This document shows positions 4,663 through 47,110 of a DNA stretch of 64,000 nucleotides, piece after piece; within the stretch, counting starts at the first letter, position 1, and each line of letters begins with the position of its first letter. The notes beneath the pieces are model-generated. The model had not been told where the DNA came from and did no database searches. It saw only the letters and a list, made by a program, of their open reading frames with translations. Source of the DNA: Candidatus Curtissbacteria bacterium RIFOXYA1_FULL_41_14 (GTDB taxonomy: Bacteria > Patescibacteriota > Microgenomatia > Curtissbacterales > GWA2-41-24). The position numbers and the translations under genes were made by a program. The stretch is taken from assembly GCA_001775095.1 (NCBI GenBank), contig MFCA01000025.1, positions 116,075 to 180,074 of the forward strand, written 5' to 3'.

Positions 4663-4670
4663 CTCAATAT

Positions 4671-4734
4671 GTCATTCTGAGTGAAACGAAGAATCTCTAG
4701 TTCGTTACAGATCCTTCACTTCGTTCAGGATGAC
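4671..4734. repeat. miniature palindromic repeat 'GTCATTCTGAGTGAAACGAAGAATCT...CAGATCCTTCACTTCGTTCAGGATGAC'
   Basis: 64-bp imperfect palindrome, intergenic. Same family as 5412..5477 and 48533..48596. Resembles the widespread 'GTCATCCTGAGCG..GAAGGATCTC' repeat that generates spurious ORFs. Confidence 0.7.
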
Positions 4735-5401: not shown

Positions 5402-5411
5402 AACATCGACT

Positions 5412-5477
5412 GTCATTCTGAGAGAAACAAAGAATCTATTATTTCAATGCAGATCCTTCACTTCCGTTCAGGATGAC
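5412..5477. repeat. miniature palindromic repeat, second copy of the 4671..4734 family
   Basis: 'GTCATTCTGAGAGAAACAAAGAATCT...CAGATCCTTCACTTCCGTTCAGGATGAC'. Confidence 0.7.
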
Positions 5478-5484
5478 AAAAAAG

Positions 5485-6262: not shown

Positions 6263-9199
6263 TTAATGAAATATCTCCCTCATTGGTTTTTGCCAAGCAT
6301 TTTTGAGTTTATCTAAATCAAGATTACACAGATTCTTGCTACCACTGAATACACTGATTGTTTTGTCGGCTACTGTTTTTCCAAAAATAGCGTACGGTAT
6401 TCCAGTAAAAAGTTTTTTGGCAATTTGCGGATTTTCAACTTCAACTAAAAATGTTCCGGCTGTTTCAGAAAAAAGGATAAAGTCGGGACGTAGATTCACC
6501 CCCGGGGTGTCCTCATGGTGTCGTCCTGACTTCACCCCGGGGGTGTCAGTCTGGGTGACTACTGAAGACAGGTCGACCTCTGTCCCGCAATTTCCTCCAA
6601 AACACATTTCGGCAAGTGCCGCAGCCAAACCGCCTTCAGATATGTCATGACAGGATAAAATTTGACCTTGTGTTATTCCTTTTGTGACCGAGCCAAAAAC
6701 TTTCGTAAGAGACTTGAGATCAATCTTTGGAATTTCTGGATCTTTCGTGCCGAGAACATCGAAATAAGTAGATCCGCCAAGATTTTTAAAATCAGGTTTA
6801 CCAACTAAAACTATCGTTGATCCTTCTGATTTGAAATCAGAGCTGACTGTTTTTCTAACATCGGGAATTTTGCCAAAGACAGAAATAAGAAGGACAGGTG
6901 GTATCTTGAGAATTTTCCCCGAGGGGTACCTGTAAGTTGACGAAAGACTGTCTTTACCTGAAATAAATGGCATTTTTAAAAGTCTGGCCATATCAGAGCA
7001 GGCATCCACTGACTGGTCTAAGTCAAAAAGTGATTCTTCGTCGGGAAATGGCCAAATGAAATTGTCGATAAGAGCGGCGTTTTTAATATCACCACCGCAG
7101 GAGATGAAATTTGAAACCGCTTCAACAATTGCCCAAATGCTTCCCCCGTATGGATCAATAAGGTTAAGGGTGGGATTTAAACCATGGGTTATTACAACAC
7201 CGTATGGTTTTTTGAGGATTGGTCTAACAATAGTCCCGTCATTGGGTCCGTCTAAATTCACCCCGCTAAATGGATGCAGGGCATTTGTCCCTTGGACATT
7301 GTGGTCATACATTCTGACAATTGGTTCTTTGGAGCAGACATTGCCATGAGAAAGAACCTTCTCAAAAATCTCCTGCCAGTCATCTGCCTTTTTAGGAAGA
7401 GGTGGTAGTTTCTTGTTTCTTGTTTCTCCCGACCTCGTCTCGACTCGGTCGAGGACGGGTTGTTGCTTGTTTCTTGTTGTCTTCATGACTCTTTGAGGTA
7501 GTCCGTGATGTAAAAATTGCATTTCCAGATCACAAACTGGCTTTTTATCAAAAGTAACTCTTAGACGTTTAGAACCGTCGAATTTACCAATTACAGTCGC
7601 CTCAACGTTGTGAAGTTGGCAGATTTGAACAGCCTTTTTGAGATTTTGGGGATCAATTGCTAAAACCATTCGTTCCTGCGATTCGGAAATAAAAATTTCC
7701 CAAGGGGAAAGACCGGAATATTTAAGCGGCGCTTTCTCCAAAAAGACACGGGCGCCGATTTTTTGGCCCATCTCACCGATTGCCGACGAAAATCCACCGG
7801 CTCCGCAATCGGTGATTGCTCTTATTAATCCTTGATCGCGAAGGTCGTAAACTGCATCGATCATTCTTTTTTCCTCAATGGCATTGCCGATCTGAACCGC
7901 TGAACCTAAGACCGTTATTGTCCGATCTGTCATTTCTCCGGAGGAAAAAGTTGCTCCATGGATACCGTCTCGGCCAGTTCTACCCCCGATTGTTACAATT
8001 AGATCCCCTACTTTGGGGAATTGTTTTTTAGCGATTTTTTTGGGGATCAAACCGTAAGAACCGACCCCCACTGTGCATTTGGCGCGAAAATCCGGATGAA
8101 AATGCACGGATCCGTTATTTGTAGGGATGCCTACCCTGTTTCCGTAATCGCGGACTCCGGCAACAACTTTGCGCAGGATGTAGTCGGGAGGTAAACATCC
8201 GGGAGGAATAGATTTTGATGGAAGATCAGGCGGCGCAAAACAAAAAATATCAGTTGATGCGATAATTTTTGCACCTTTACCTGTTCCTAAAACATCACGA
8301 AAAACTCCACCGGAACCGGTCATTGCCCCACCGTACGGTTCAATTGCGCTAGGACTGTTGTGAGTTTCGACTTTGCCGGAAATTGCCCATCCGTCATAGA
8401 AATCAATGACACCGGAGTTATCGACAAATGCCGAAATGATCAGTTTTTTATTGTAGTTTGCTGTTTGCCGAATCCTGTCTATCAAGGGTTTTTTGACTTT
8501 TCCATCAACAATCAATTTTGCTTTGAAAGTCTTGTGGACGCAGTGTTCACTCCAGGTTTGAGCCAGGACTTCAATTTCGCAATCAGTCGGATCACGGCTG
8601 ATTTTGGCAAAATAGTTTTTAATTATCTTCATTTCCTGGCGGTTTAAGAAAAGACGATCTTTGGAAAGTTCCATTAACTGGCTATCTGATAGATTTCGAA
8701 CTGGGATTTTTTCGACTTTACCCTTTTGACCGGAAATCATCAGTGTCTTAGGAGGTTTTTTGACAACTTGTTCGACCGTTTCATTAACCAGAAGCCTATT
8801 CGTTATTATTGAGAGATCTTTGTCTTTCACCTTTCCCCAAAAGGCGTATTCGGTTGAGGTATCGGCAGCAGTCAATTTAATTTTCAAATCAGATGCTGCC
8901 TTGAGGAGCGATCCAACTTCAGGATTCATTACGCCGGGTTTATAGGCGACTTCGATTTTTTTATCGAAGCTGGAGAAAATTGGTTTGTTAAAAGACATTT
9001 GTTGATTAATTGGTTCAAATAAAACAGCTTGAGAAAATTTTTGGGCATCAGAGAAAGAGATTCCTTCAAGGCGGTAGACTTTGGATGAGCGGATATTTTT
9101 GATTGATTTGATGCCAAGCGTCCTTTTAATTTCGGCGAGGAGCTCCTGGCCTTTGGAATCGGTGGGGCTATTTGCAGTAATCCTTATTTCATAAATCAT
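6263..9199 (-). CDS. purL: PurS-PurL fusion: FGAM synthase II with an N-terminal PurS domain, carrying two in-frame repeat insertions
   Basis: First ~80 aa are PurS-like, followed by PurL AIRS/AIRS_C domains. At 978 aa it is ~150 aa longer than PurS+PurL. The extra length includes 'TDTPGVKSGRHHEDTPGV' and 'QQPVLDRVETRSGETRNKK', both encoded by palindromic repeats. Confidence 0.85.
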   Translation of the reverse strand: MIYEIRITANSPTDSKGQELLAEIKRTLGIKSIKNIRSSKVYRLEGISFSDAQKFSQAVLFEPINQQMSFNKPIFSSFDKKIEVAYKPGVMNPEVGSLLKAASDLKIKLTAADTSTEYAFWGKVKDKDLSIITNRLLVNETVEQVVKKPPKTLMISGQKGKVEKIPVRNLSDSQLMELSKDRLFLNRQEMKIIKNYFAKISRDPTDCEIEVLAQTWSEHCVHKTFKAKLIVDGKVKKPLIDRIRQTANYNKKLIISAFVDNSGVIDFYDGWAISGKVETHNSPSAIEPYGGAMTGSGGVFRDVLGTGKGAKIIASTDIFCFAPPDLPSKSIPPGCLPPDYILRKVVAGVRDYGNRVGIPTNNGSVHFHPDFRAKCTVGVGSYGLIPKKIAKKQFPKVGDLIVTIGGRTGRDGIHGATFSSGEMTDRTITVLGSAVQIGNAIEEKRMIDAVYDLRDQGLIRAITDCGAGGFSSAIGEMGQKIGARVFLEKAPLKYSGLSPWEIFISESQERMVLAIDPQNLKKAVQICQLHNVEATVIGKFDGSKRLRVTFDKKPVCDLEMQFLHHGLPQRVMKTTRNKQQPVLDRVETRSGETRNKKLPPLPKKADDWQEIFEKVLSHGNVCSKEPIVRMYDHNVQGTNALHPFSGVNLDGPNDGTIVRPILKKPYGVVITHGLNPTLNLIDPYGGSIWAIVEAVSNFISCGGDIKNAALIDNFIWPFPDEESLFDLDQSVDACSDMARLLKMPFISGKDSLSSTYRYPSGKILKIPPVLLISVFGKIPDVRKTVSSDFKSEGSTIVLVGKPDFKNLGGSTYFDVLGTKDPEIPKIDLKSLTKVFGSVTKGITQGQILSCHDISEGGLAAALAEMCFGGNCGTEVDLSSVVTQTDTPGVKSGRHHEDTPGVNLRPDFILFSETAGTFLVEVENPQIAKKLFTGIPYAIFGKTVADKTISVFSGSKNLCNLDLDKLKNAWQKPMREIFH

Positions 9200-10709: not shown

Positions 10710-11411
10710 TCAATTTAAATACCTGCTTATAACTTCATCAATTGCTTCGATAAATATTTCGTCCTCAATTGGCATAAATTTTGCCCGAAGATCCTCGATT
10801 GTTTTTATATCCCCTACTCTAATAAATTTTCTTCTGATAACTGCCCCCGTATCGTAAACTGTCGGCTTCATGAAATGAATCGTTGGACCAAAGTAAGTCA
10901 GTCTCTTAGCCAAGACCGCTTTGAAAACATCTGTTTGTTCCCCTTTGATAACTGGGCTGATTGTACCATCGGGGAGGGTAATTTTATCGCCTTCACCCTT
11001 TTTAGGTAGTAGTGCCGGATGTGCATTAATTGCCGCATACCCTTCACCGAAATTGCACTTGAAAAAATTGAAAAAGTTATCATCCATTACTAAATCCCAA
11101 CCGCCGAAAACCAGAAGCTTTGGCCTGTATTGCGGCTGAGATATGAACCAGCCCAAGTCCTTCATGTAGTTGGACCTTGCTTTTGAGTCACCACTGGCCA
11201 TCCTGCTGCGATAATCAGGAAGATTCCAATAAACTGCCGGTATTTGATTTTCAAGAGCAAATTTAAGTCCCCAAGATTCCTTCTTATGACTAACCACTAA
11301 TCTAATATAGAATTTACTTTGAGGCTTTTGGGCAGCTTTTATGATTGCCGGCAGCTTTGCACCTCCTCCAATCATAATAGCAATAGGAGTTTTTTGGGAT
11401 TGAGAGGCCAT
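10710..11411 (-). CDS. purN: formyltransferase, phosphoribosylglycinamide formyltransferase-like
   Basis: Formyl_trans_N signature 'INAHPALLP', in pur-operon context. Confidence 0.65.
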   Translation of the reverse strand: MASQSQKTPIAIMIGGGAKLPAIIKAAQKPQSKFYIRLVVSHKKESWGLKFALENQIPAVYWNLPDYRSRMASGDSKARSNYMKDLGWFISQPQYRPKLLVFGGWDLVMDDNFFNFFKCNFGEGYAAINAHPALLPKKGEGDKITLPDGTISPVIKGEQTDVFKAVLAKRLTYFGPTIHFMKPTVYDTGAVIRRKFIRVGDIKTIEDLRAKFMPIEDEIFIEAIDEVISRYLN

Positions 11412-11458
11412 TAATTTAGACCTAATATAACAATAGGTAGCTTCTAGTGCAAGAGGAG

Positions 11459-11695
11459 TTACTTTTCGTCTTTAAGGTAAAGTCCCAAAATCCCCAGAAC
11501 ACCGGCAACCAAAAAAAGCTGTGTAGGAGCGATCGATGTAAAGTCGTTTTGAGTAACAAACTCAAAAGCTCCAACCAGAATAATCACAGCTGTCGCTGCA
11601 ATTAATAGTTGCGACAAAGGGGCGCTTTTGGACCTTTTTAAAAGCGCTTTTTTGGCCATATAAATTATAATTGCATTTTTTGCCAAAAGTGTCAA
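11459..11695 (-). CDS. small two-TM membrane protein, first gene of the pur operon, leaderless
   Basis: 78-aa hydrophobic ORF. On the minus strand TTGACA-~17-AATTAT/TATAAT sits immediately before the ATG. Confidence 0.4.
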   Translation of the reverse strand: MTLLAKNAIIIYMAKKALLKRSKSAPLSQLLIAATAVIILVGAFEFVTQNDFTSIAPTQLFLVAGVLGILGLYLKDEK

Positions 11696-11770
11696 CTTCC
11701 ACTCTCTGCGTCATTCCCGCAAATGCGGGAATCTATACAATAATTTGATTTGGGGAATAAAAAAGATTAC

Positions 11771-12241
11771 GGGAAGAGAGTAAGCCAGATTCTGTTTTAC
11801 CCTTCGATTACACTCAGGGTAAAACCCTGAGCTTGTCGAATGGGTTTTAACGATCATCTATCTCGAAATGACAATTTGATCATTTCGGCTCGCCTTTTGG
11901 GCGGGCTGCCCCTACTTAGAACCTCCCGGAAGCATGGTCAAACGGTTCTAGTCTGGGTTGCAACAGGTAGGATTGTCAGCGTTTCACTCCCGCTCGTCTC
12001 TGTGACTCTCAAGTCTTGTCAGTTCAAGACCTGTTCTAAACCCCGTATGCGGGGAACATCTGCTGTGGAGCAGACAAGGGTCTAGACACCAGCTATTAGC
12101 CTTCGACTGTACTCAGGCTACCCTGAATTACATTGAAGGGTACTAGTCGGAGCTTACACTCCGTCCCTTGCTTCCTGTTGTCTGGACTTTCCTCCAGGTA
12201 CCGTACGGTACCTGGCGATCGTTCTTCTTCCCGAAATCAGA
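11771..12241 (-). ncRNA. rnpB: RNase P RNA (bacterial type)
   Basis: Minus strand carries the conserved 'GGAGGAAAGUCCAGAC' (P4 5' strand) near the 5' end and 'ACAGAAUCUGGCUUA' (P4 3' strand) near the 3' end, plus 'GUGAAACGCUG'-like segments. A T-run and the hairpin 'GATTCCCGCATTTGCGGGAATG' follow the 3' end. Confidence 0.7.
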
Positions 12242-12342
12242 TATGGATTATATCAAAAAATAGGCAAATCTTCCACTAACCGATAACACCCCGGGGTGCG
12301 CAAAGATACACCCAGGCTCACCTCGGGGGTGGATCTTTGACT

Positions 12343-13374
12343 TTACTGTTCCTTTAATCCGTCTTCAAATTTCTGATCTTCTTCTAAGAATTCTCTAAAA
12401 ATAATCCTGGCGACAACTACTGTCGGTACTGCCAGAACGGCTCCCCCAATCCCGGCAAGTTTGGCGCCAATTAAAAGGGCTAGAATAACCACAGGAGGTT
12501 GCAGTCCAACCGCTTTGGACATAACCACAGGAACAATAAGGTGGTTTTCCAGTTGCTGGACTATAAAGAACAAGGCAGCGATTGCTAAACCAATGAGTGG
12601 GGAGATAGTTAAACCGACAAGAATTGCCGGAATGGAAGAAACGATTGGTCCGACAATTGGTACAATTTCCAAGAGTCCGGCAACTAGAGCCAGTGGCAGC
12701 GCGAATGGAATTTGCAAGATTGTCAAACCAATAAATATTAATATACCCACAATAAATGACAGGGCGATTTGTCCTCTAACCCAGCTCCCTAAACCGGCCT
12801 CTACTTTTGAAATCGCACTGCTGACCTTTTTTTCTTGTTTCCCGGAAAATGGCGAAGCGATAAATTTGATGGCGCTTTTGTGCTCTAGAAGAAGATAGAA
12901 GGTAAATACAAAAATTGTAATTAATAAAAATATGCTTGAAAAAATCGCAGTCGATATTGAAATTAAATTGCCGATAACTGCTTGAATTTGTCTGGTTAAA
13001 ATGTCCGAAAGGTTCTGAACGGGGATTTGGTAAAAGACTAAAAAGTCATTAATCTTGGAGATGATTTGCGGTAATTTTGAAATAAAATCGGATGTCTGGG
13101 ATATCAGAGGCGGAATGATAATACCGACAATAAAGGAAATAACTGCAATGAGTATTATGTAAACGAATAAAATCGACAGGACTCTTGGAATTCGTCTTAC
13201 GTTTAACCATTCGACAGGTTTAAGAAGCGCCGAGAGCAGAATTATTGAGAAAAAAACAAAAACTAAAATTTGACGGATTTGAATTAGAAACCAAAGGCCA
13301 ATCAGAACCGAAACCGTAAAAATAACTGTTTTGTAGGAAATTTCGATTCTCAATGGCGTGTTATCTTGCGGCAT
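12343..13374 (-). CDS. AI-2E family transporter (PerM/YhhT-like permease)
   Basis: ~8-TM protein with the characteristic AI-2E topology and length. Confidence 0.65.
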   Translation of the reverse strand: MPQDNTPLRIEISYKTVIFTVSVLIGLWFLIQIRQILVFVFFSIILLSALLKPVEWLNVRRIPRVLSILFVYIILIAVISFIVGIIIPPLISQTSDFISKLPQIISKINDFLVFYQIPVQNLSDILTRQIQAVIGNLISISTAIFSSIFLLITIFVFTFYLLLEHKSAIKFIASPFSGKQEKKVSSAISKVEAGLGSWVRGQIALSFIVGILIFIGLTILQIPFALPLALVAGLLEIVPIVGPIVSSIPAILVGLTISPLIGLAIAALFFIVQQLENHLIVPVVMSKAVGLQPPVVILALLIGAKLAGIGGAVLAVPTVVVARIIFREFLEEDQKFEDGLKEQ

Positions 13375-13474: not shown

Positions 13475-14488
13475 TCACACCGGGTGCGAAACAAGTTTTT
13501 TCAACTCTTGCTGCCAGTTGGGTTTTGAAATATCAAAAAGCCTAATTTTGGGAAACTTTTTAAACCAGGTTTTTTGGCGTCTGATAAAACTATGAACGTT
13601 GCCTCTTAGGCGGTTAATCGCTTCTCTCTGACTGATTTTGCCCGAAAGGTATCTTGATATCCAGCGACATTCAAGGCCAAGATCATCAAGCCACTGGGGG
13701 CTAACCCTTTTCTCTAGAAGTGTTTGAACTTCTTCAATCATTCCGTGCTCCAATCGTTCCTCAAGCCATTTATCAGCGCGGCTGTAAAGATAATTGTTTG
13801 GTGCGGTTAAGCCGATGATTTGATATTCCCCATCAAGCGACACACCCGGTGTGCGCTTTGACGCGACCCCGCTCACACCGGGTGTGAGATAGGAAGCGCG
13901 AGCGATTTCAATCGCGCGAATCAAGCGTCTTGGGTTTTGACGATCCGACTCATTCATACTCTTCGCTCTTTTTGGATCAATCTTTTCAAGTTTTTGATAA
14001 AGATGATCAATCGATAATTTCTCAAGCTCTCGGCGAAGTGTTAAGTCAGAAGGAATGCCGACTGATCCAATTCCATCGAGCAATGCTTTAATATAAAATC
14101 CTGTACCGCCCACTACAATCGGTAATTTCTTTGATACTATGATTTGAATCATAGTATCAGAAGCAAATTTTAAAAAATCTGATACCGAAAAAATTCCTTG
14201 CTCCGAACCCGGTTCGCGCAAAGATCCATCTGGGCTCGAATCGGGTTCGTATCTGGGTGGTTCCACAAGGTCGAAGCCGTGGATTTTGACACCATCGACA
14301 ATCCAGAAACCTTTGTGCTTTTCGACTTTTGATTTGAAGGAGGCTTTACCTGTTGTGATATCAAGATTCTGATATACCTGTCTTGAATCGGCTGAAATAA
14401 GTTCACCCTGAAACTTGCGTGCAAGTTGAAGGGCTAAGGCAGTTTTACCTGTTGCTGTCGGTCCATAAATAATCAATCTCTTTTTCAT
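13475..14488 (-). CDS. miaA: tRNA dimethylallyltransferase, with in-frame palindromic-repeat insertions
   Basis: P-loop 'GPTATGKT' and IPPT core. About 30 aa longer than typical MiaA. Carries a repeated 'TPGVS' peptide encoded by GC-rich palindromes. Confidence 0.85.
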   Translation of the reverse strand: MKKRLIIYGPTATGKTALALQLARKFQGELISADSRQVYQNLDITTGKASFKSKVEKHKGFWIVDGVKIHGFDLVEPPRYEPDSSPDGSLREPGSEQGIFSVSDFLKFASDTMIQIIVSKKLPIVVGGTGFYIKALLDGIGSVGIPSDLTLRRELEKLSIDHLYQKLEKIDPKRAKSMNESDRQNPRRLIRAIEIARASYLTPGVSGVASKRTPGVSLDGEYQIIGLTAPNNYLYSRADKWLEERLEHGMIEEVQTLLEKRVSPQWLDDLGLECRWISRYLSGKISQREAINRLRGNVHSFIRRQKTWFKKFPKIRLFDISKPNWQQELKKLVSHPV

Positions 14489-22403: not shown

Positions 22404-22472
22404 CTAAACTTCGCGAATTGGATGCGAATTTGATTAATGCGAATAGATGCGAATGAGCGTATGGGTACTGAC

Positions 22473-23747
22473 TTAGTGAACGGCACTTCGAGGATTACCT
22501 TTGTGATTAATTAGCTTATCAAGGATCTGGAAGCGGCGCTGTTTTTCTTTGTAGGAAACATCATCGTCAAACGCTTTCGCAGCGGCAGTATTTGGTCGAG
22601 GGGAGTATTTGGCAATATAAGCATAGGCAAAATTAACTGTTTGAGCTAACTTAACTGTGTTTTGAAAATTTCTTTCGCTTTCTTGGCAAAAGCCGACAAT
22701 AATATCTGTCGAAATCTGAGTGTCGGGAATCTCCTTTCTGATTTTTTTGACCAAATTGATATACTGGCTCGCTGTATACCATCTATTCATTTTTTTAAGC
22801 ATTTGGTCATCTCCGGACTGAACAGGCAGATGAATGTTTCTGTCAATTTTGGGATTTTTGGAGATTGTCTCGATGAGCTCATCGGAAAAATCCCAGGGAT
22901 TTGAAGAAATGAATTTAACCGTTTCAACTCCCCCACTTCGTCCGGCTTTGCCGGACTTCGAGGGGCAAGCTTCTATTTTGCAAACTTCTTCAAGAAGATA
23001 AGGAAACAATGTTGGAATTCGCAATTTTCCCAAATGCTTTACCATCACCGGTTTAACTACTCGACCATTAGGAAGCTTATAACCGGCTTTTGTATTTTTG
23101 ACTCGATCAGATCCATATGAATTAACATTTTGGCCAAGGAGGGTAATTTCTCGGCATCCTCTTTCCGCCAGTTCTTTGACTTCATCGATAACATCTTCAA
23201 ATGGCCTTGATACTTCTTGCCCTCTGGTAAAAGGTACGACGCAATAAGTACAAAAATTATTGCAGCCGTTGGAAATTGGTATCCAAGCATGAGTTGCGTC
23301 ACTTCGAAGTGCCGGATAATTAAAACCAACCTCTTCCAGAGGTAAAAATTCATCAACTTGGGGTATTCTCTTGTGAAGAGTATTAAGATACTTACCACTC
23401 GTGTCCCTGGCGACCATTCCAGTCATGCAGCCGGTAAGAACAATTTTAGGCCTCCGGCCCGGTCTCCGACGTAGAGACGTCTCTGACTCGGAACGAGGGC
23501 CTCCGGCCCGGTGGGCCTCTTTGATAATATTTCTGATAAATCCGGTCACTTTATCTTCTGCAGATTGACGGACCATGCAGGTGTTGATGATTATTTCAGA
23601 AGCTGATTTGAGATCCTTTGCCCTTTTAAAACCCCTTGCCAAATAGTAACTGGCAATTCTTTGGCTATCTGCCCAGTTTTGCTGGCAACCGAAAGTTTTG
23701 ATGTAAAATGTAGGAGATTTCATTGTTAAATTGTTAAATACGCACAA
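22473..23747 (-). CDS. radical-SAM methylthiotransferase (MiaB/RimO family), with two in-frame GC-rich repeat insertions
   Basis: N-terminal MTTase 'KTFGCQQNWADSQ', radical SAM core and TRAM-like C-terminus. Insertion peptides are 'RAGGPRSESETSLRRRPGRRP' and 'CPSKSGKAGRSGG'. Confidence 0.7.
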   Translation of the reverse strand: MCVFNNLTMKSPTFYIKTFGCQQNWADSQRIASYYLARGFKRAKDLKSASEIIINTCMVRQSAEDKVTGFIRNIIKEAHRAGGPRSESETSLRRRPGRRPKIVLTGCMTGMVARDTSGKYLNTLHKRIPQVDEFLPLEEVGFNYPALRSDATHAWIPISNGCNNFCTYCVVPFTRGQEVSRPFEDVIDEVKELAERGCREITLLGQNVNSYGSDRVKNTKAGYKLPNGRVVKPVMVKHLGKLRIPTLFPYLLEEVCKIEACPSKSGKAGRSGGVETVKFISSNPWDFSDELIETISKNPKIDRNIHLPVQSGDDQMLKKMNRWYTASQYINLVKKIRKEIPDTQISTDIIVGFCQESERNFQNTVKLAQTVNFAYAYIAKYSPRPNTAAAKAFDDDVSYKEKQRRFQILDKLINHKGNPRSAVH

Positions 23748-23796: not shown

Positions 23797-24204
23797 TCAG
23801 CCGAAAATCTTGGGGATAAAGATCAGTAATCCAATAATAACCGCTGCAATCGACAAAATTAAAACACCGCCGGCAGCACAGTGTTTGGCAAGTTTGGCTT
23901 TCGGATGTAAATCTGGATGCAGAAGGTTACAGGTTTCCTCGATAGCGGTATTTAGAGCCTCGGCTGCGATAACTGCTGATGAGATTAAGATTACTGCTAG
24001 CCATTCCAGAAGACTAATCGAGAAAATAAATCCCAAAACAGACACCAGAGCAAAGGCTAAAATATGGATCCTAAAATGTAACCCTTTTTGAAAACTGTAA
24101 ACCAGGCCCTCAATGGCATAGCCAAAACTATTAATTTGATGCTTAACAAAGCCATCCCGATGTTCCATGTAAATAATCTTATCACTTATTCGACTACACA
24201 GCAT
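23797..24204 (-). CDS. dgkA: diacylglycerol/undecaprenol kinase (DgkA family)
   Basis: 3-TM protein with the DgkA signature 'EALNTAIE'. Confidence 0.75.
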   Translation of the reverse strand: MLCSRISDKIIYMEHRDGFVKHQINSFGYAIEGLVYSFQKGLHFRIHILAFALVSVLGFIFSISLLEWLAVILISSAVIAAEALNTAIEETCNLLHPDLHPKAKLAKHCAAGGVLILSIAAVIIGLLIFIPKIFG

Positions 24205-24245
24205 CCGTCATCCTGAGTCCGGCTTTGCCGGACGAAGGATCTAGA

Positions 24246-25031: not shown

Positions 25032-25134
25032 AATTTGAAATTCCTGCCTGCCGGCAGGCAGGTGCAATTTGACATTTGAAATTCCCGGCCTTGTCTCGAC
25101 TTTGTCGAGGACGGGTTGAAATTTGAAATTGATA

Positions 25135-27901: not shown

Positions 27902-27961
27902 TTGTTAAATGCGAATGTATGCGAATGGTTAAAATCTATCTTACAAGATTAGATTGTTCTA

Positions 27962-27996
27962 ACAAAGCATTATATCTCAAAAAATATTATTGTCAA
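27962..27996 (-). promoter_or_regulatory. sigma70-like promoter (TTGACA-17-TATAAT) for hup, flanked by ATGCGAAT-type direct repeats
   Basis: Minus strand reads 'ATTCGCGTACATTCGCATTTGACAATAATATTTTTTGAGATATAAT'. The same ATTCGC(A/G)TACATTCGCATTT box recurs abutting the hup ATG. Confidence 0.55.
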
Positions 27997-28015
27997 ATGC
28001 GAATGTACGCGAATA

Positions 28016-31510: not shown

Positions 31511-31584
31511 CGGGGTGTAGTTCAGTTGGCCAGAACGCCAGGCTGGGGGTCTGGAAGTCGTCGGTTCAAGTCCGACCACCCCGA
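31511..31584 (+). tRNA. tRNA-Pro (anticodon GGG)
   Basis: Cloverleaf by hand: acceptor CGGGGTG/CACCCCG, D-arm GTTC..GAAC, anticodon arm CCAGG-CU GGG GG-TCTGG, T-arm GTCGG-TTCAAGT-CCGAC, discriminator A. No encoded CCA. Confidence 0.75.
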
Positions 31585-45908: not shown

Positions 45909-46271
45909 TTACCCTCGGCTTTTTTGTATATCTTTCTCTTTGCCTTTATCTTTGTCTTTTTGTTTTTTACCTTTTGTTTCTGATTTTGGCATAAGCATAG
46001 CAATCGTTTGCCCTGATTTAAGATAAACAATTGCCTTTTTGCCGCCGCCGGTCTTTACTTGCTTTCGAGTCTTGGCAACTCTTTTAGTCTTTGGTGCAAT
46101 ATTGGTCATATTTACTCGCATAACATCGACACCGAACTGAGAAAAAACCTGTTTTGCTACCGCGTTTTTGGTTGCCTGCGTTACCACTAGAAAAGTATAA
46201 ATACCTTTCTCCATCTGCTTATAAGCTTTTTCCGAAAGTATGGCTTTTTTGATAACACTTTTTAATTTCAT
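45909..46271 (-). CDS. rplW: 50S ribosomal protein L23, with Lys-rich C-terminal tail
   Basis: L23 family. Confidence 0.85.
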   Translation of the reverse strand: MKLKSVIKKAILSEKAYKQMEKGIYTFLVVTQATKNAVAKQVFSQFGVDVMRVNMTNIAPKTKRVAKTRKQVKTGGGKKAIVYLKSGQTIAMLMPKSETKGKKQKDKDKGKEKDIQKSRG

Positions 46272-47110
46272 TTAGCGACTCCTATTGCCTCTTTGGATAG
46301 CAATATATTTCTATTCTTAATAATTTCGAAGGCATTGAGATTGGCCATACGACTGACTAGTATTCTCTGAATATTTCGCGTCGCCAGTTTCACATCTTGT
46401 CCATTGTTTACCGGTTTGTCGGAAATTACTAAAAGACAATTTCCTTGTAAATCTAATTTTTTAAGTAAACTTGCAATAATTTTCGTCTTAGCTTGAATTT
46501 TTTCGATATTAGTAATTACTTTGACACTTCCTTCTTGGGCTTTTAATGAAAATGCACTCACCAGAGCCTTTCTTTTCATTTTCTTAGGCAAAGTTAAAGT
46601 TACCTTTCTGAATTTAGGGCCATGGGCAACACCTCCGCCTACCCAAAGCGGTGAGCGGATTGATCCTGCGCGGGCTCTGCCAGTGCCTTTTTGGCGCCAG
46701 GGCTTGCGGCCCCCGCCTCTTGTCTGGGAACGAGTTTTTGTAGAACCCGCGTGAACTGACTGGTTTACCGAATAGATGCGAATTGCCTGGGCTAAAAGCT
46801 TTTCGTTTGGCTTTTGACCGAAAATTTCGCGAGGAAGAGCAACTTTGCCAATAGATCGGCCGTTTATGTCAAAAGCAGGAGCCAAAAGTCCTCCACCAGC
46901 GGATTTAACCTGCCTGCCGGCAGGCAGGCTCTTGACGGTTTTTGTCTTTCTCGGTGCCTTCTGTTTATCTTCTGTGCCTTCTGTGATTATCTTTTTATCC
47001 ACGATCTTAGAACTGGTCTTCGATCTAATTTTGACCTGTTTAGATTTTGCTATCTTTGTTATTTTTTTTGCTGCTGCCATAATTATTTCTCTTGAAACCA
47101 CTGAGAGCAC
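46268..47110 (-). CDS. rplD: 50S ribosomal protein L4, with ~75-aa N-terminal extension containing an in-frame palindromic repeat ('LPAGRQ')
   Basis: L4 core begins near 'FDINGRSIGKVALP'. The extension contains 'CTGCCTGCCGGCAGGCAGG'. Confidence 0.8.
   Translation of the reverse strand: MLSVVSREIIMAAAKKITKIAKSKQVKIRSKTSSKIVDKKIITEGTEDKQKAPRKTKTVKSLPAGRQVKSAGGGLLAPAFDINGRSIGKVALPREIFGQKPNEKLLAQAIRIYSVNQSVHAGSTKTRSQTRGGGRKPWRQKGTGRARAGSIRSPLWVGGGVAHGPKFRKVTLTLPKKMKRKALVSAFSLKAQEGSVKVITNIEKIQAKTKIIASLLKKLDLQGNCLLVISDKPVNNGQDVKLATRNIQRILVSRMANLNAFEIIKNRNILLSKEAIGVAK

Follow-up and report, generated by a model that had tools for sequence, protein, structure and literature searches.

Why would a gene for a tRNA-modifying enzyme carry two GC-rich, repeat-like segments inside its coding sequence, and why would the core of one of them reappear in a nearby spacer? 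The question was raised by a 64-kb stretch of DNA (hereafter the window, meaning the whole stretch that was analysed; 40% GC) from Candidatus Curtissbacteria, an uncultivated groundwater bacterium, in which the gene of a MiaB-like methylthiotransferase, miaB, contains the segments that we call Element A and Element B. A preliminary description of the window had taken both for insertions. We examined the window together with the same neighbourhood in other genomes, and the results suggested that A and B are probably optional, short, GC-rich, hairpin-forming insertions of repeat DNA in surface loops at two places of a miaB gene that is otherwise intact, resembling repetitive extragenic palindromic (REP) sequences, Rickettsia palindromic elements (RPEs) and the GC clusters of mitochondria. 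In-frame palindromic repeats within genes are an already known kind of element; the small size, the nesting at hairpin apices and the recurrent hot spots are the novel aspects.

The host gene is the following.

22473..23723, minus strand: miaB, 416 amino acids (aa), a MiaB/RimO-family radical-S-adenosylmethionine (radical-SAM) methylthiotransferase without a TRAM domain

The protein matched the Pfam domains UPF0004 (PF00919; residues 7-103, 5.4e-16) and Radical_SAM (PF04055; residues 149-361, 3.8e-25), with no Pfam match to TRAM. It passed TIGR00089 for the MiaB/RimO subfamily (321.6 against a cut-off of 251) and missed the cut-off of the MiaB equivalog TIGR01574 (319.6 bits against 355.3). 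The MiaB role is supported by miaA, which is 9 kb away from miaB in the window and also near it in relatives. An identical protein, P0001 (KKR58205.1 and other accessions; one contig measures 432 kb), is found on 57 contigs under the name MiaB of Candidatus Curtissbacteria (P numbers denote orthologue proteins, L numbers loci and WIN the window allele). The AlphaFold model had a pLDDT (predicted local distance difference test score) of 79.5, and its top fold matches were the MiaB structures 7MJZ and 7MJV. The alignment to 7MJV ended at chain residue 384 of 457, where TRAM would begin, and the protein ends 11 residues later. TRAM is an RNA-binding domain and a conserved C-terminal part of MiaB/RimO/MtaB enzymes. 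Unlike these, the whole Curtissbacteria MiaB clade (the window protein and P0001-P0120) is TRAM-less, and no TRAM-encoding gene was noticed beside miaB in the loci for which gene lists were returned.

In 59 orthologues, the auxiliary Fe-S cluster cysteines of UPF0004 (C13, C49 and C99) and those of the radical-SAM CxxxCxxC motif (C154, C158 and C161) were invariant. The preliminary description had proposed mapping the insertion points relative to the radical-SAM and TRAM domains. Both fell in low-confidence predicted loops of the AlphaFold model. Element A lies between helix 53-73 and strand 93-98 (pLDDT ~51-62), and Element B between helix 240-248 and strand 268-272, where the block 251-260 has a pLDDT of 55. 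The low-pLDDT helix-to-strand setting of both predicted loops, the six invariant cysteines and the presence of the protein on 57 contigs argue for tolerance of the inserts.

To collect the loci of relatives, metagenome contigs were scanned with a 72-aa family-specific fragment of the protein. The orthologue set (120 proteins, then ~145) was aligned, the orthologue tree was computed without the insert columns, and the limits of the inserts were defined by a codon alignment of WIN, L081, L083 and L085. The order of ABC transporter, dgkA, miaB and glycosyltransferases, with miaA nearby, was kept in relatives. The basal orthologue measured 383-385 aa, and extra residues were concentrated at three hot spots. 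Both A and B were absent from most of the ~145 orthologues and were bounded by whole codons and free of stops. The B site was filled in 16 of 145 proteins, 14 of them with B-type inserts; the A site held a short form of A in 26 and a long insert in four. The insert lengths seen at miaB were 18, 24, 30, 33, 39, 42 and 72 nucleotides (nt), all multiples of three and stop-free in the frame of the gene, and none of 85 loci contained a frame-broken miaB. Other GC-rich palindromes occupied the A and B loops and the third loop in other Curtissbacteria. The alignment check that had been suggested for these segments thus found them optional, in frame and not conserved across orthologues, and the claim of two insertions in the MiaB-like gene was upheld.

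The carriers were scattered over the orthologue tree, each usually nearer to a non-carrier than to another carrier. The clearest case was the pair L169 and L170, ~99.3% identical over ~4 kb with 28 single-nucleotide polymorphisms (SNPs), whose sole indel was a different 42-nt GC-rich hairpin exactly at the B site. Import of this insert by recombination was considered and ruled out, since the SNPs do not cluster around it. No donor copy of the 42-nt insert was found in the window or the collected loci. Similarly, P0006 has B and P0060 lacks it at 94.5% identity, while the nearest B-carrying relative of P0006 is only 84.6% identical; P0049, with short A, and P0036, with no A, are 95.8% identical. 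The long form of A occurred in three separate lineages (P0001, P0004 and P0019), and P0054 had a different long insert at the A site.

Some alleles were mosaics. In P0127 the N-terminal part was A-less, like P0002, and the C-terminal part was identical to the window protein; P0129 and P0130 corresponded to P0004 with a diverged, A-less stretch of 75 N-terminal residues. In all three, which are cluster members of P0001 and P0004, the breakpoints lay between the A and B sites. The mosaics show homologous recombination between co-occurring Curtissbacteria strains or, for the read-derived P0127, to chimeric assembly.

Element B and its apex have the following positions.

22932..22970, minus strand: Element B, exactly 39 nt (13 codons), in frame, encoding ACPSKSGKAGRSG (residues 252-264)
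22940..22956, no strand assigned: apical hairpin of B, the 17-mer GTCCGGC-TTT-GCCGGAC with a 7-bp stem

In the codon alignment, B (GCT TGC CCC TCG AAG TCC GGC AAA GCC GGA CGA AGT GGG) was placed between K-I-(E/K) and G-(I/V). Its RNA folded at -26.4 kcal/mol (z = -4.5 against shuffles) into a single long hairpin, which, as read from the fold, consists of a CCCC/GGGG stem, a U-U mismatch, a C-G pair, a GAA/GAA internal loop, a G-C pair and an apical stem of 6-7 bp. A terminator search called nothing in B. The outer shell was constant in the seven orthologues with DNA, and the apex was variable: it comprised 15 nt in the window, TCCAGCATTGCGGGA, CCCCGCGAAGCGGGA (with a G-C to C-G exchange), nothing at all, or a 48-nt palindrome. 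The last of these, which replaces the apex of B in L168, contains a CTGAG...CGAAG unit, and a compensatory pair in the apex was seen in L117. The apex residues read GKAG, SIAG, REAG, W or 24 residues. Between WIN and L083 the DNA of B was identical at 39 of 39 positions, and the genes were 85.8% identical overall and 73% at third positions.

The reappearance of the core of B concerns a palindrome next to dgkA.

24207..24241, plus strand: REP-like palindrome GTCATCCTGAG-[apex]-CGAAGGATC upstream of dgkA, in the spacer that separates this gene from an ABC-2 permease gene

Here GTCATCCTGAG occupies 24207-24217 and CGAAGGATC 24233-24241, and the apex at 24217-24233 is the 17-mer of B. The 15-mer TCCGGCTTTGCCGGA was indeed exact at both places where it had been reported, 22941-22955 and 24218-24232 (expected 0.09 even at up to 2 mismatches). 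The full exact match between B and the intergenic element is 17 nt, GTCCGGCTTTGCCGGAC, which corresponds to the top of B, GTCCGGCAAAGCCGGAC. By our calculation, 17-mers that are repeated and contain 12 or more G/C bases have an expectation of ~4e-4 in a window of 40% GC, and the window contained 15 repeated 17-mers against 1.0 in Markov simulations. The two elements lie 1.3 kb apart, with different shells and an identical apex. The earlier claim that B recurs within a miniature palindrome beside dgkA therefore stood for the core but not for the element, for the shared part is only the 17-nt apex, and whole B was seen only at the miaB site. The intergenic element folded at -23.3 kcal/mol (z = -4.3 against shuffles). 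In L083 its stem reads ATTCT/AGAAT in place of ATCCT/AGGAT, a compensatory change, and neither L081 nor L085 has the element. The terminator search called nothing terminator-like in it, no T-run follows it by inspection, and no Rfam family matched A, B or this element.

Element A has a composite organisation.

23457..23510, minus strand: Element A, ~54 nt (18 codons) relative to the closest orthologue L083, and also to L085, in frame; the alignment is slightly ambiguous
23449..23463, plus strand: copy 1 of the direct repeat GGCCTCCGGCCCGGT, exact match
23498..23512, plus strand: copy 2 of GGCCTCCGGCCCGGT, exact match
23461..23493, minus strand: inner 33-nt imperfect palindrome of A, in mRNA T TCC GAG TCA GAG ACG TCT CTA CGT CGG AGA CC

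The two copies of GGCCTCCGGCCCGGT lie 49 nt apart (no shuffle reached 3 matches) at the positions given before. They flank the palindrome AGAGACGTCTCT, placed by the sequence ruler at 23473-23484, and on the minus strand the stretch encodes HRAGGPRSESETSLRRRPGRRP (residues 71-92), within which A itself accounts for residues 72-89; these points of the preliminary description were confirmed. The places of the elements had also been given correctly, but the codon alignment moved their limits to 22932-22970 for B, ~23457-23510 for A and 23461-23493 for its inner unit. The region of A encodes 7 Arg in 22 residues, and its RNA folded at -37.4 kcal/mol (z = -2.3 against shuffles). The terminator search made a single call, within A on the antisense strand, where it found a stem of 5 bp.

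The inner unit of 33 nt sits in the apical loop (second hairpin) of an older GC-rich insert of 24 nt. When the inner 33 nt are removed, WIN reads AHRAGGPRGRRP, which resembles the short form ALR(A/V)RGPLGRRP / TLRARGSLSRRP of L166, L167 and L168. This short form at the A site adds ~8 codons to the base elsewhere and is comparable in L167, L168 and L173; in L166 it reads ACT CTC CGA GCC AGA GGC TCT CTG AGC CGG CGG CCC. Its layout is arm, complement and arm, as in L173 with GGGCC AGA GGCCC TCTT GGGCC. The inner unit was also present in L081 and, in a diverged version, in L108. Because deletion of the 33 nt restores a typical short form, 12 nt of the 15-nt direct repeat (GGGCCGGAGGCC in mRNA sense) are assigned by the alignment to an arm of the older insert. 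The idea that the 15-nt repeat was duplicated by the arrival of the inner palindrome could therefore not be maintained. A related candidate, in which the repeat is the target duplication of a 34-nt element, was likewise rejected because a single insertion of 49 nt would put the gene out of frame.

Palindromes of further families were found at miaB and at unrelated loci. The 20-nt palindrome CCTGCCTGCCGGCAGGCAGG occurred at miaB sites 1 and 2 in relatives and also in rplD and a spacer of the window; at miaB site 2 it was read in two frames (L088 and L096). A 32-nt element named PVLD, found in purL and in the same spacer, also occurred in miaB of L089 in another reading frame. The spacer copies are arranged as follows.

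25043..25118, no strand assigned: two palindromes, CCTGCCTGCCGGCAGGCAGG at 25043-25062 and the 'PVLDKVETRPG' element at 25083-25118, between two ABC-2 permease genes, each flanked by ATTTGAAAT-type repeats

In L081 the two ABC-2 permease genes abut. Several further spacers of the window contain palindromes; at 4669-4731 and 5411-5478, inverted dimers of GTCATTCTGAG...CGAAGAATC fill two spacers and form a hairpin of ~63 nt, like bacterial interspersed mosaic elements (BIMEs). One GTCATTCTGAG...CGAAGAATC unit is nested inside another in L081. Each palindrome family has 2-3 copies within the 64 kb. The miaA gene (13475-14488) also has optional inserts, at 13827-13893 and 14205-14248, which were confirmed against L081 and L085. 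They are GC-rich, palindromic and in frame (SYLTPGVSGVASKRTPGVSL and YEPDSSPDGSLREPGSEQG). L085 lacks the second, which in L081 is shorter, and the miaA of L081 has a different insert with a duplicated EESKPTSEV.

The scans of viral contigs in IMG/VR extended two of these families. CCTGCCTGCCGGCAGGCAGG had 42 exact copies there, and flanking direct repeats of at least 7 nt accompanied 8 of 45 distinct copies against 1.8% in controls, the flanks measuring 0-14 nt. In a tRNA-Met gene (L318, 2239-2330) the long variable arm is made up by one copy, and ARAGORN still calls a tRNA of 92 nt. The palindrome was also seen at the variable-loop position of tRNA-Met in L296 (8616) and in the apparent D-loop of a tRNA in L325 (515), where ARAGORN called no tRNA. 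The shell GTCATYCTGAG-N-CGAAGRATC had at least 177 copies in 120 IMG/VR stretches (L175-L294). Among the copies listed, the apex measured 5 nt in 65 of 177; it was 12 nt or longer in 76, of which 45 folded into a hairpin. The contigs had a median GC of 0.58, and the copies often stood as inverted pairs or several per contig. The window copy matched no Rfam family, and a sequence-based literature search gave no match. The idea that GTCATYCTGAG units accompany GIY-YIG genes was dropped (0 of the 177 sites listed). The shell pattern of B had one match in the viral contigs, on a contig of 71% GC, which is the chance level. When A and B, translated in all six frames, were compared with 5.8 billion proteins to find further hosts, nothing was returned at E <= 10, the segments being too short for a search of this size to be informative.

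The earlier suggestion that different repeat families recombine or nest was thus borne out as to nesting, seen in the 33 nt of A within 24 nt, in L168, in L081 and in the viral copies, but recombination was apparent only as allele mosaics between strains.

By analogy, the insert modules fit selfish or neutral palindromic repeat DNA. The strong folds of B, the intergenic element and A, the compensatory pairs and the identity of B in WIN and L083 speak for upkeep of the hairpins. New copies might be made and inserted by a process with a preference for the apical loops of hairpins already present, and selection would keep only copies with lengths of 3n in tolerant loops. The modules would persist where they are harmless, namely in spacers, in surface loops at 3n length and in tolerant RNA loops. 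GC-richness would help an insert to survive because nearly all six frames stay open: all six in B and CCTGCCTGCCGGCAGGCAGG, five in A. Filled and empty alleles may then be shuffled between strains by homologous recombination. The inserts would be translated as disordered loops, neutral or nearly so for the enzyme, in which case peptides such as GGPRSESETSLR and IEACPSKSGK are expected.

Several points weigh against this account. The ten open reading frames (ORFs) of the window that were scanned included no transposase, REP-associated tyrosine transposase (RAYT), insertion sequence (IS) or other mobilising enzyme. With the exception of a look-alike in L138, neither the shell around the apex of B nor the 33-nt unit inside A was encountered outside the miaB site; the B pattern did not exceed chance in viral contigs, and copies were counted only over 64 kb of the genome and orthologous neighbourhoods. 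Neither B nor the 42-nt insert has a target duplication beyond an ambiguity of 1-2 nt, and the flanking repeats of the other families are variable, so that one uniform mechanism is not evident. Part of the scattered distribution reflects recombination of whole gene segments, not insertion. Finally, we infer the translation of the inserts.

The same data could also be explained by growth in place. Where loops are unconstrained, the segments would lengthen at their quasi-palindromes through replication slippage and template switching, hairpins would stimulate duplication of their neighbourhood, and alleles would spread only by homologous recombination, with nothing mobile involved. The layout of short A as arm, complement and arm, with direct repeats of 11-12 nt at a distance of 4-5 nt, is of the kind that such growth would leave. 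The tandem heptamers flanking the PVLD element, which differ by locus, the recombination evident in the mosaic alleles, the restriction of the B shell and the inner A unit to their locus in the data examined and the lack of a transposase in the scanned ORFs point the same way. We nevertheless regard local growth as unlikely. The 42-nt hairpin appears in one step on a ~99.3%-identical background, an identical 17-mer stands at two loci, and the exact 20-mer and the 32-nt element occur at unrelated loci of unrelated genomes in different frames. The same inner A unit also appears in three lineages whose nearest relatives are without it.

A more far-reaching variant would treat the modules as a class of mobile DNA in their own right. 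Such tiny hairpins, 15-50 nt long, would spread without a dedicated transposase by template switching during replication or repair and insert with a preference for the apices of hairpins already present, and palindromes would thus enlarge from the middle outwards. The modules would persist in structurally tolerant protein and tRNA loops and leave behind target duplications that vary in length. Two families or more (GTCATYCTGAG...CGAAGRATC and CCTGCCTGCCGGCAGGCAGG) extend across many phyla and phage-like contigs and appear to be undescribed. This variant seems to us doubtful, somewhat more so than growth in place.

Retention of the inserts for a function is a distinctly improbable alternative. 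Arg/Lys-rich loops might aid tRNA binding in an enzyme without TRAM, or the mRNA hairpins might control stability or translation. Consistent with such a role, all Curtissbacteria orthologues are TRAM-less, the 22 residues of the A region include 7 Arg and those of B include 2 Lys and 1 Arg, compensatory changes occur in the stems, B is more conserved than its flanks, and the 3' arm of the intergenic hairpin, as read from the sequence, overlaps a possible ribosome-binding site. Yet only a minority of the 145 orthologues carry inserts (16 at the B site, 26 with short A and four with a long insert at the A site) though TRAM loss is universal, and near-identical strains differ in the presence of an insert. 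The residues at the apex change radically, and hosts differ in the frame in which they read the same modules. The bias of the inserts in amino acids results from GC-rich codons.

That the inserts are missing from the mature protein, through ribosome bypass or RNA removal in the manner of the Magnusiomyces mitochondrial GC clusters known as 'byp', has a precedent in GC clusters of coding regions (PMC8811140) and would suit the strong hairpins of A and B, but it is scarcely credible because every variant keeps the frame (18, 24, 30, 33, 39, 42 or 72 nt, stop-free; no frame-breaking insert in 85 loci), a constraint under which bypassed elements do not stand.

The preferred explanation, optional insertions of repeat DNA, has its closest likeness in the RPEs (Ogata et al. 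2000, summarised in PMC10969869). These are palindromic DNA placed in frame in unrelated housekeeping genes, translated and compatible with the fold, occurring also in spacers and varying in presence among relatives (PMC10969869). RPEs differ in being ~100-150 bp long and in forming defined, high-copy families specific to Rickettsia. The modules described here measure 18-54 nt, are GC-rich in a genome of 40% GC, are nested and have low copy numbers in the data examined; the likeness is an analogy only. Membership of a described RPE family is implausible because of this size and the host phylum.

REPs and BIMEs are imperfect palindromes of 20-40 nt, often in inverted dimers and in some cases inside genes (PMC3733652), and the elements here share the character of short palindromes. 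Intragenic REPs with GTAG/CGTC tags, whose dimers encode 20-30 residues, have been described (Di Nocera et al. 2013, PMC3733652). By inspection, A, B, the GTCATYCTGAG family and the 20-mer have no terminal GTAG or CGTC, while the inner unit of A has both internally. The scanned ORFs include no RAYT, which is an IS200/IS605-like Y1 transposase, and nesting at the apex is not described for REPs. REPs are high in copy number and mostly extragenic; over the 64 kb of the genome covered here, each family has 2-3 copies.

The GC clusters of yeast mitochondria, as in var1, are likewise short GC-rich palindromes in AT-rich DNA and occur as optional in-frame inserts in genes (PMC8811140). Their terminal repeats are taken as target duplications, their loops change fast, existing clusters fuse and are reshuffled to give new ones, and gene conversion spreads them (PMC8811140). 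They are organellar, however, with other sequences, and some have been proposed to be ribozyme-like or translationally bypassed, of which there was no sign here. MITEs (miniature transposable elements with inverted repeats; Correia, ERIC, BOX and RUP) are small non-autonomous repeats that can make in-frame fusions with host ORFs (PMC10969869). They typically span 50-500 bp, with terminal inverted repeats that match a known IS and a target duplication of fixed length. The units here are far shorter, no parent IS was seen in the ten ORFs, and flanking repeats are absent or variable, which sets them apart from MITEs.

Literature searches by sequence and by topic found no description of such elements in bacteria of the candidate phyla radiation (CPR) or of these families. 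Odd loops rich in Arg, Gly and Pro in conserved enzymes and ribosomal proteins of CPR bacteria can be repeat DNA and not lineage-specific motifs, which matters for annotation, structure prediction and alignments of phylogenetic markers. Recurrent inserts at three loops of one enzyme provide a natural map of the insertion tolerance of the MiaB fold, and filled and empty alleles at strain level provide a population marker. Should the spread prove independent of a transposase and targeted to apices, the range of selfish palindromes (REPs, RPEs and mitochondrial GC clusters) would extend to ultra-small bacteria, with a link to the two widespread and apparently undescribed palindrome families of the viral-contig scans. 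Were the modules mobile DNA of a kind of their own, they would constitute a general source of diversity in protein loops.

The gene upstream of miaB, beside the intergenic palindrome, is the following.

23797..24204, minus strand: dgkA (diacylglycerol kinase), Pfam DAGK_prokar

Translation probably begins at the second in-frame ATG (MEHRDGF), which lies ~12 codons after the beginning of the ORF; the orthologues have 123 aa.

Further candidate repeats were noted elsewhere in the window. In purL (6263-9199) there are two in-frame GC-rich candidate palindromes, at 6482-6564 and 7427-7462, the latter with tandem heptamers (GTTTCTT)n on both sides; the related copies at 25083 and in L089 have other heptamer arrays (ATTTGAA and AGTTCAA). 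The rplD gene (46268-47110) encodes ribosomal protein L4 with an N-terminal extension of ~90 aa, and its candidate palindrome CCTGCCTGCCGGCAGGCAGG at 46909-46928 is read as SLPAGRQ. A tRNA gene at 31511-31584 is followed directly by a palindrome of ~60 nt, CCCTTCGACTCACTTCG...CGAAGTGGGGTGAAGGG (region to 31650), which has the CACTTCG/CGAAGTG motif in common with Element B. The region 11411-12343 comprises ~930 nt without a long ORF and with strong hairpins at 11613, 11801, 11865, 12033, 12097, 12181 and 12289, and has no Rfam match. Exact AT-rich repeats of 17-19 nt in spacers (10692/48105, 43520/48045 and 25066/43557, e.g. CCTAATTGACCTAAATAA) may be regulatory motifs. Arrays of GCGAAT with a spacing of 5-7 nt occur just downstream of miaB (22417-22460), at 27902-28014 and at 46769.

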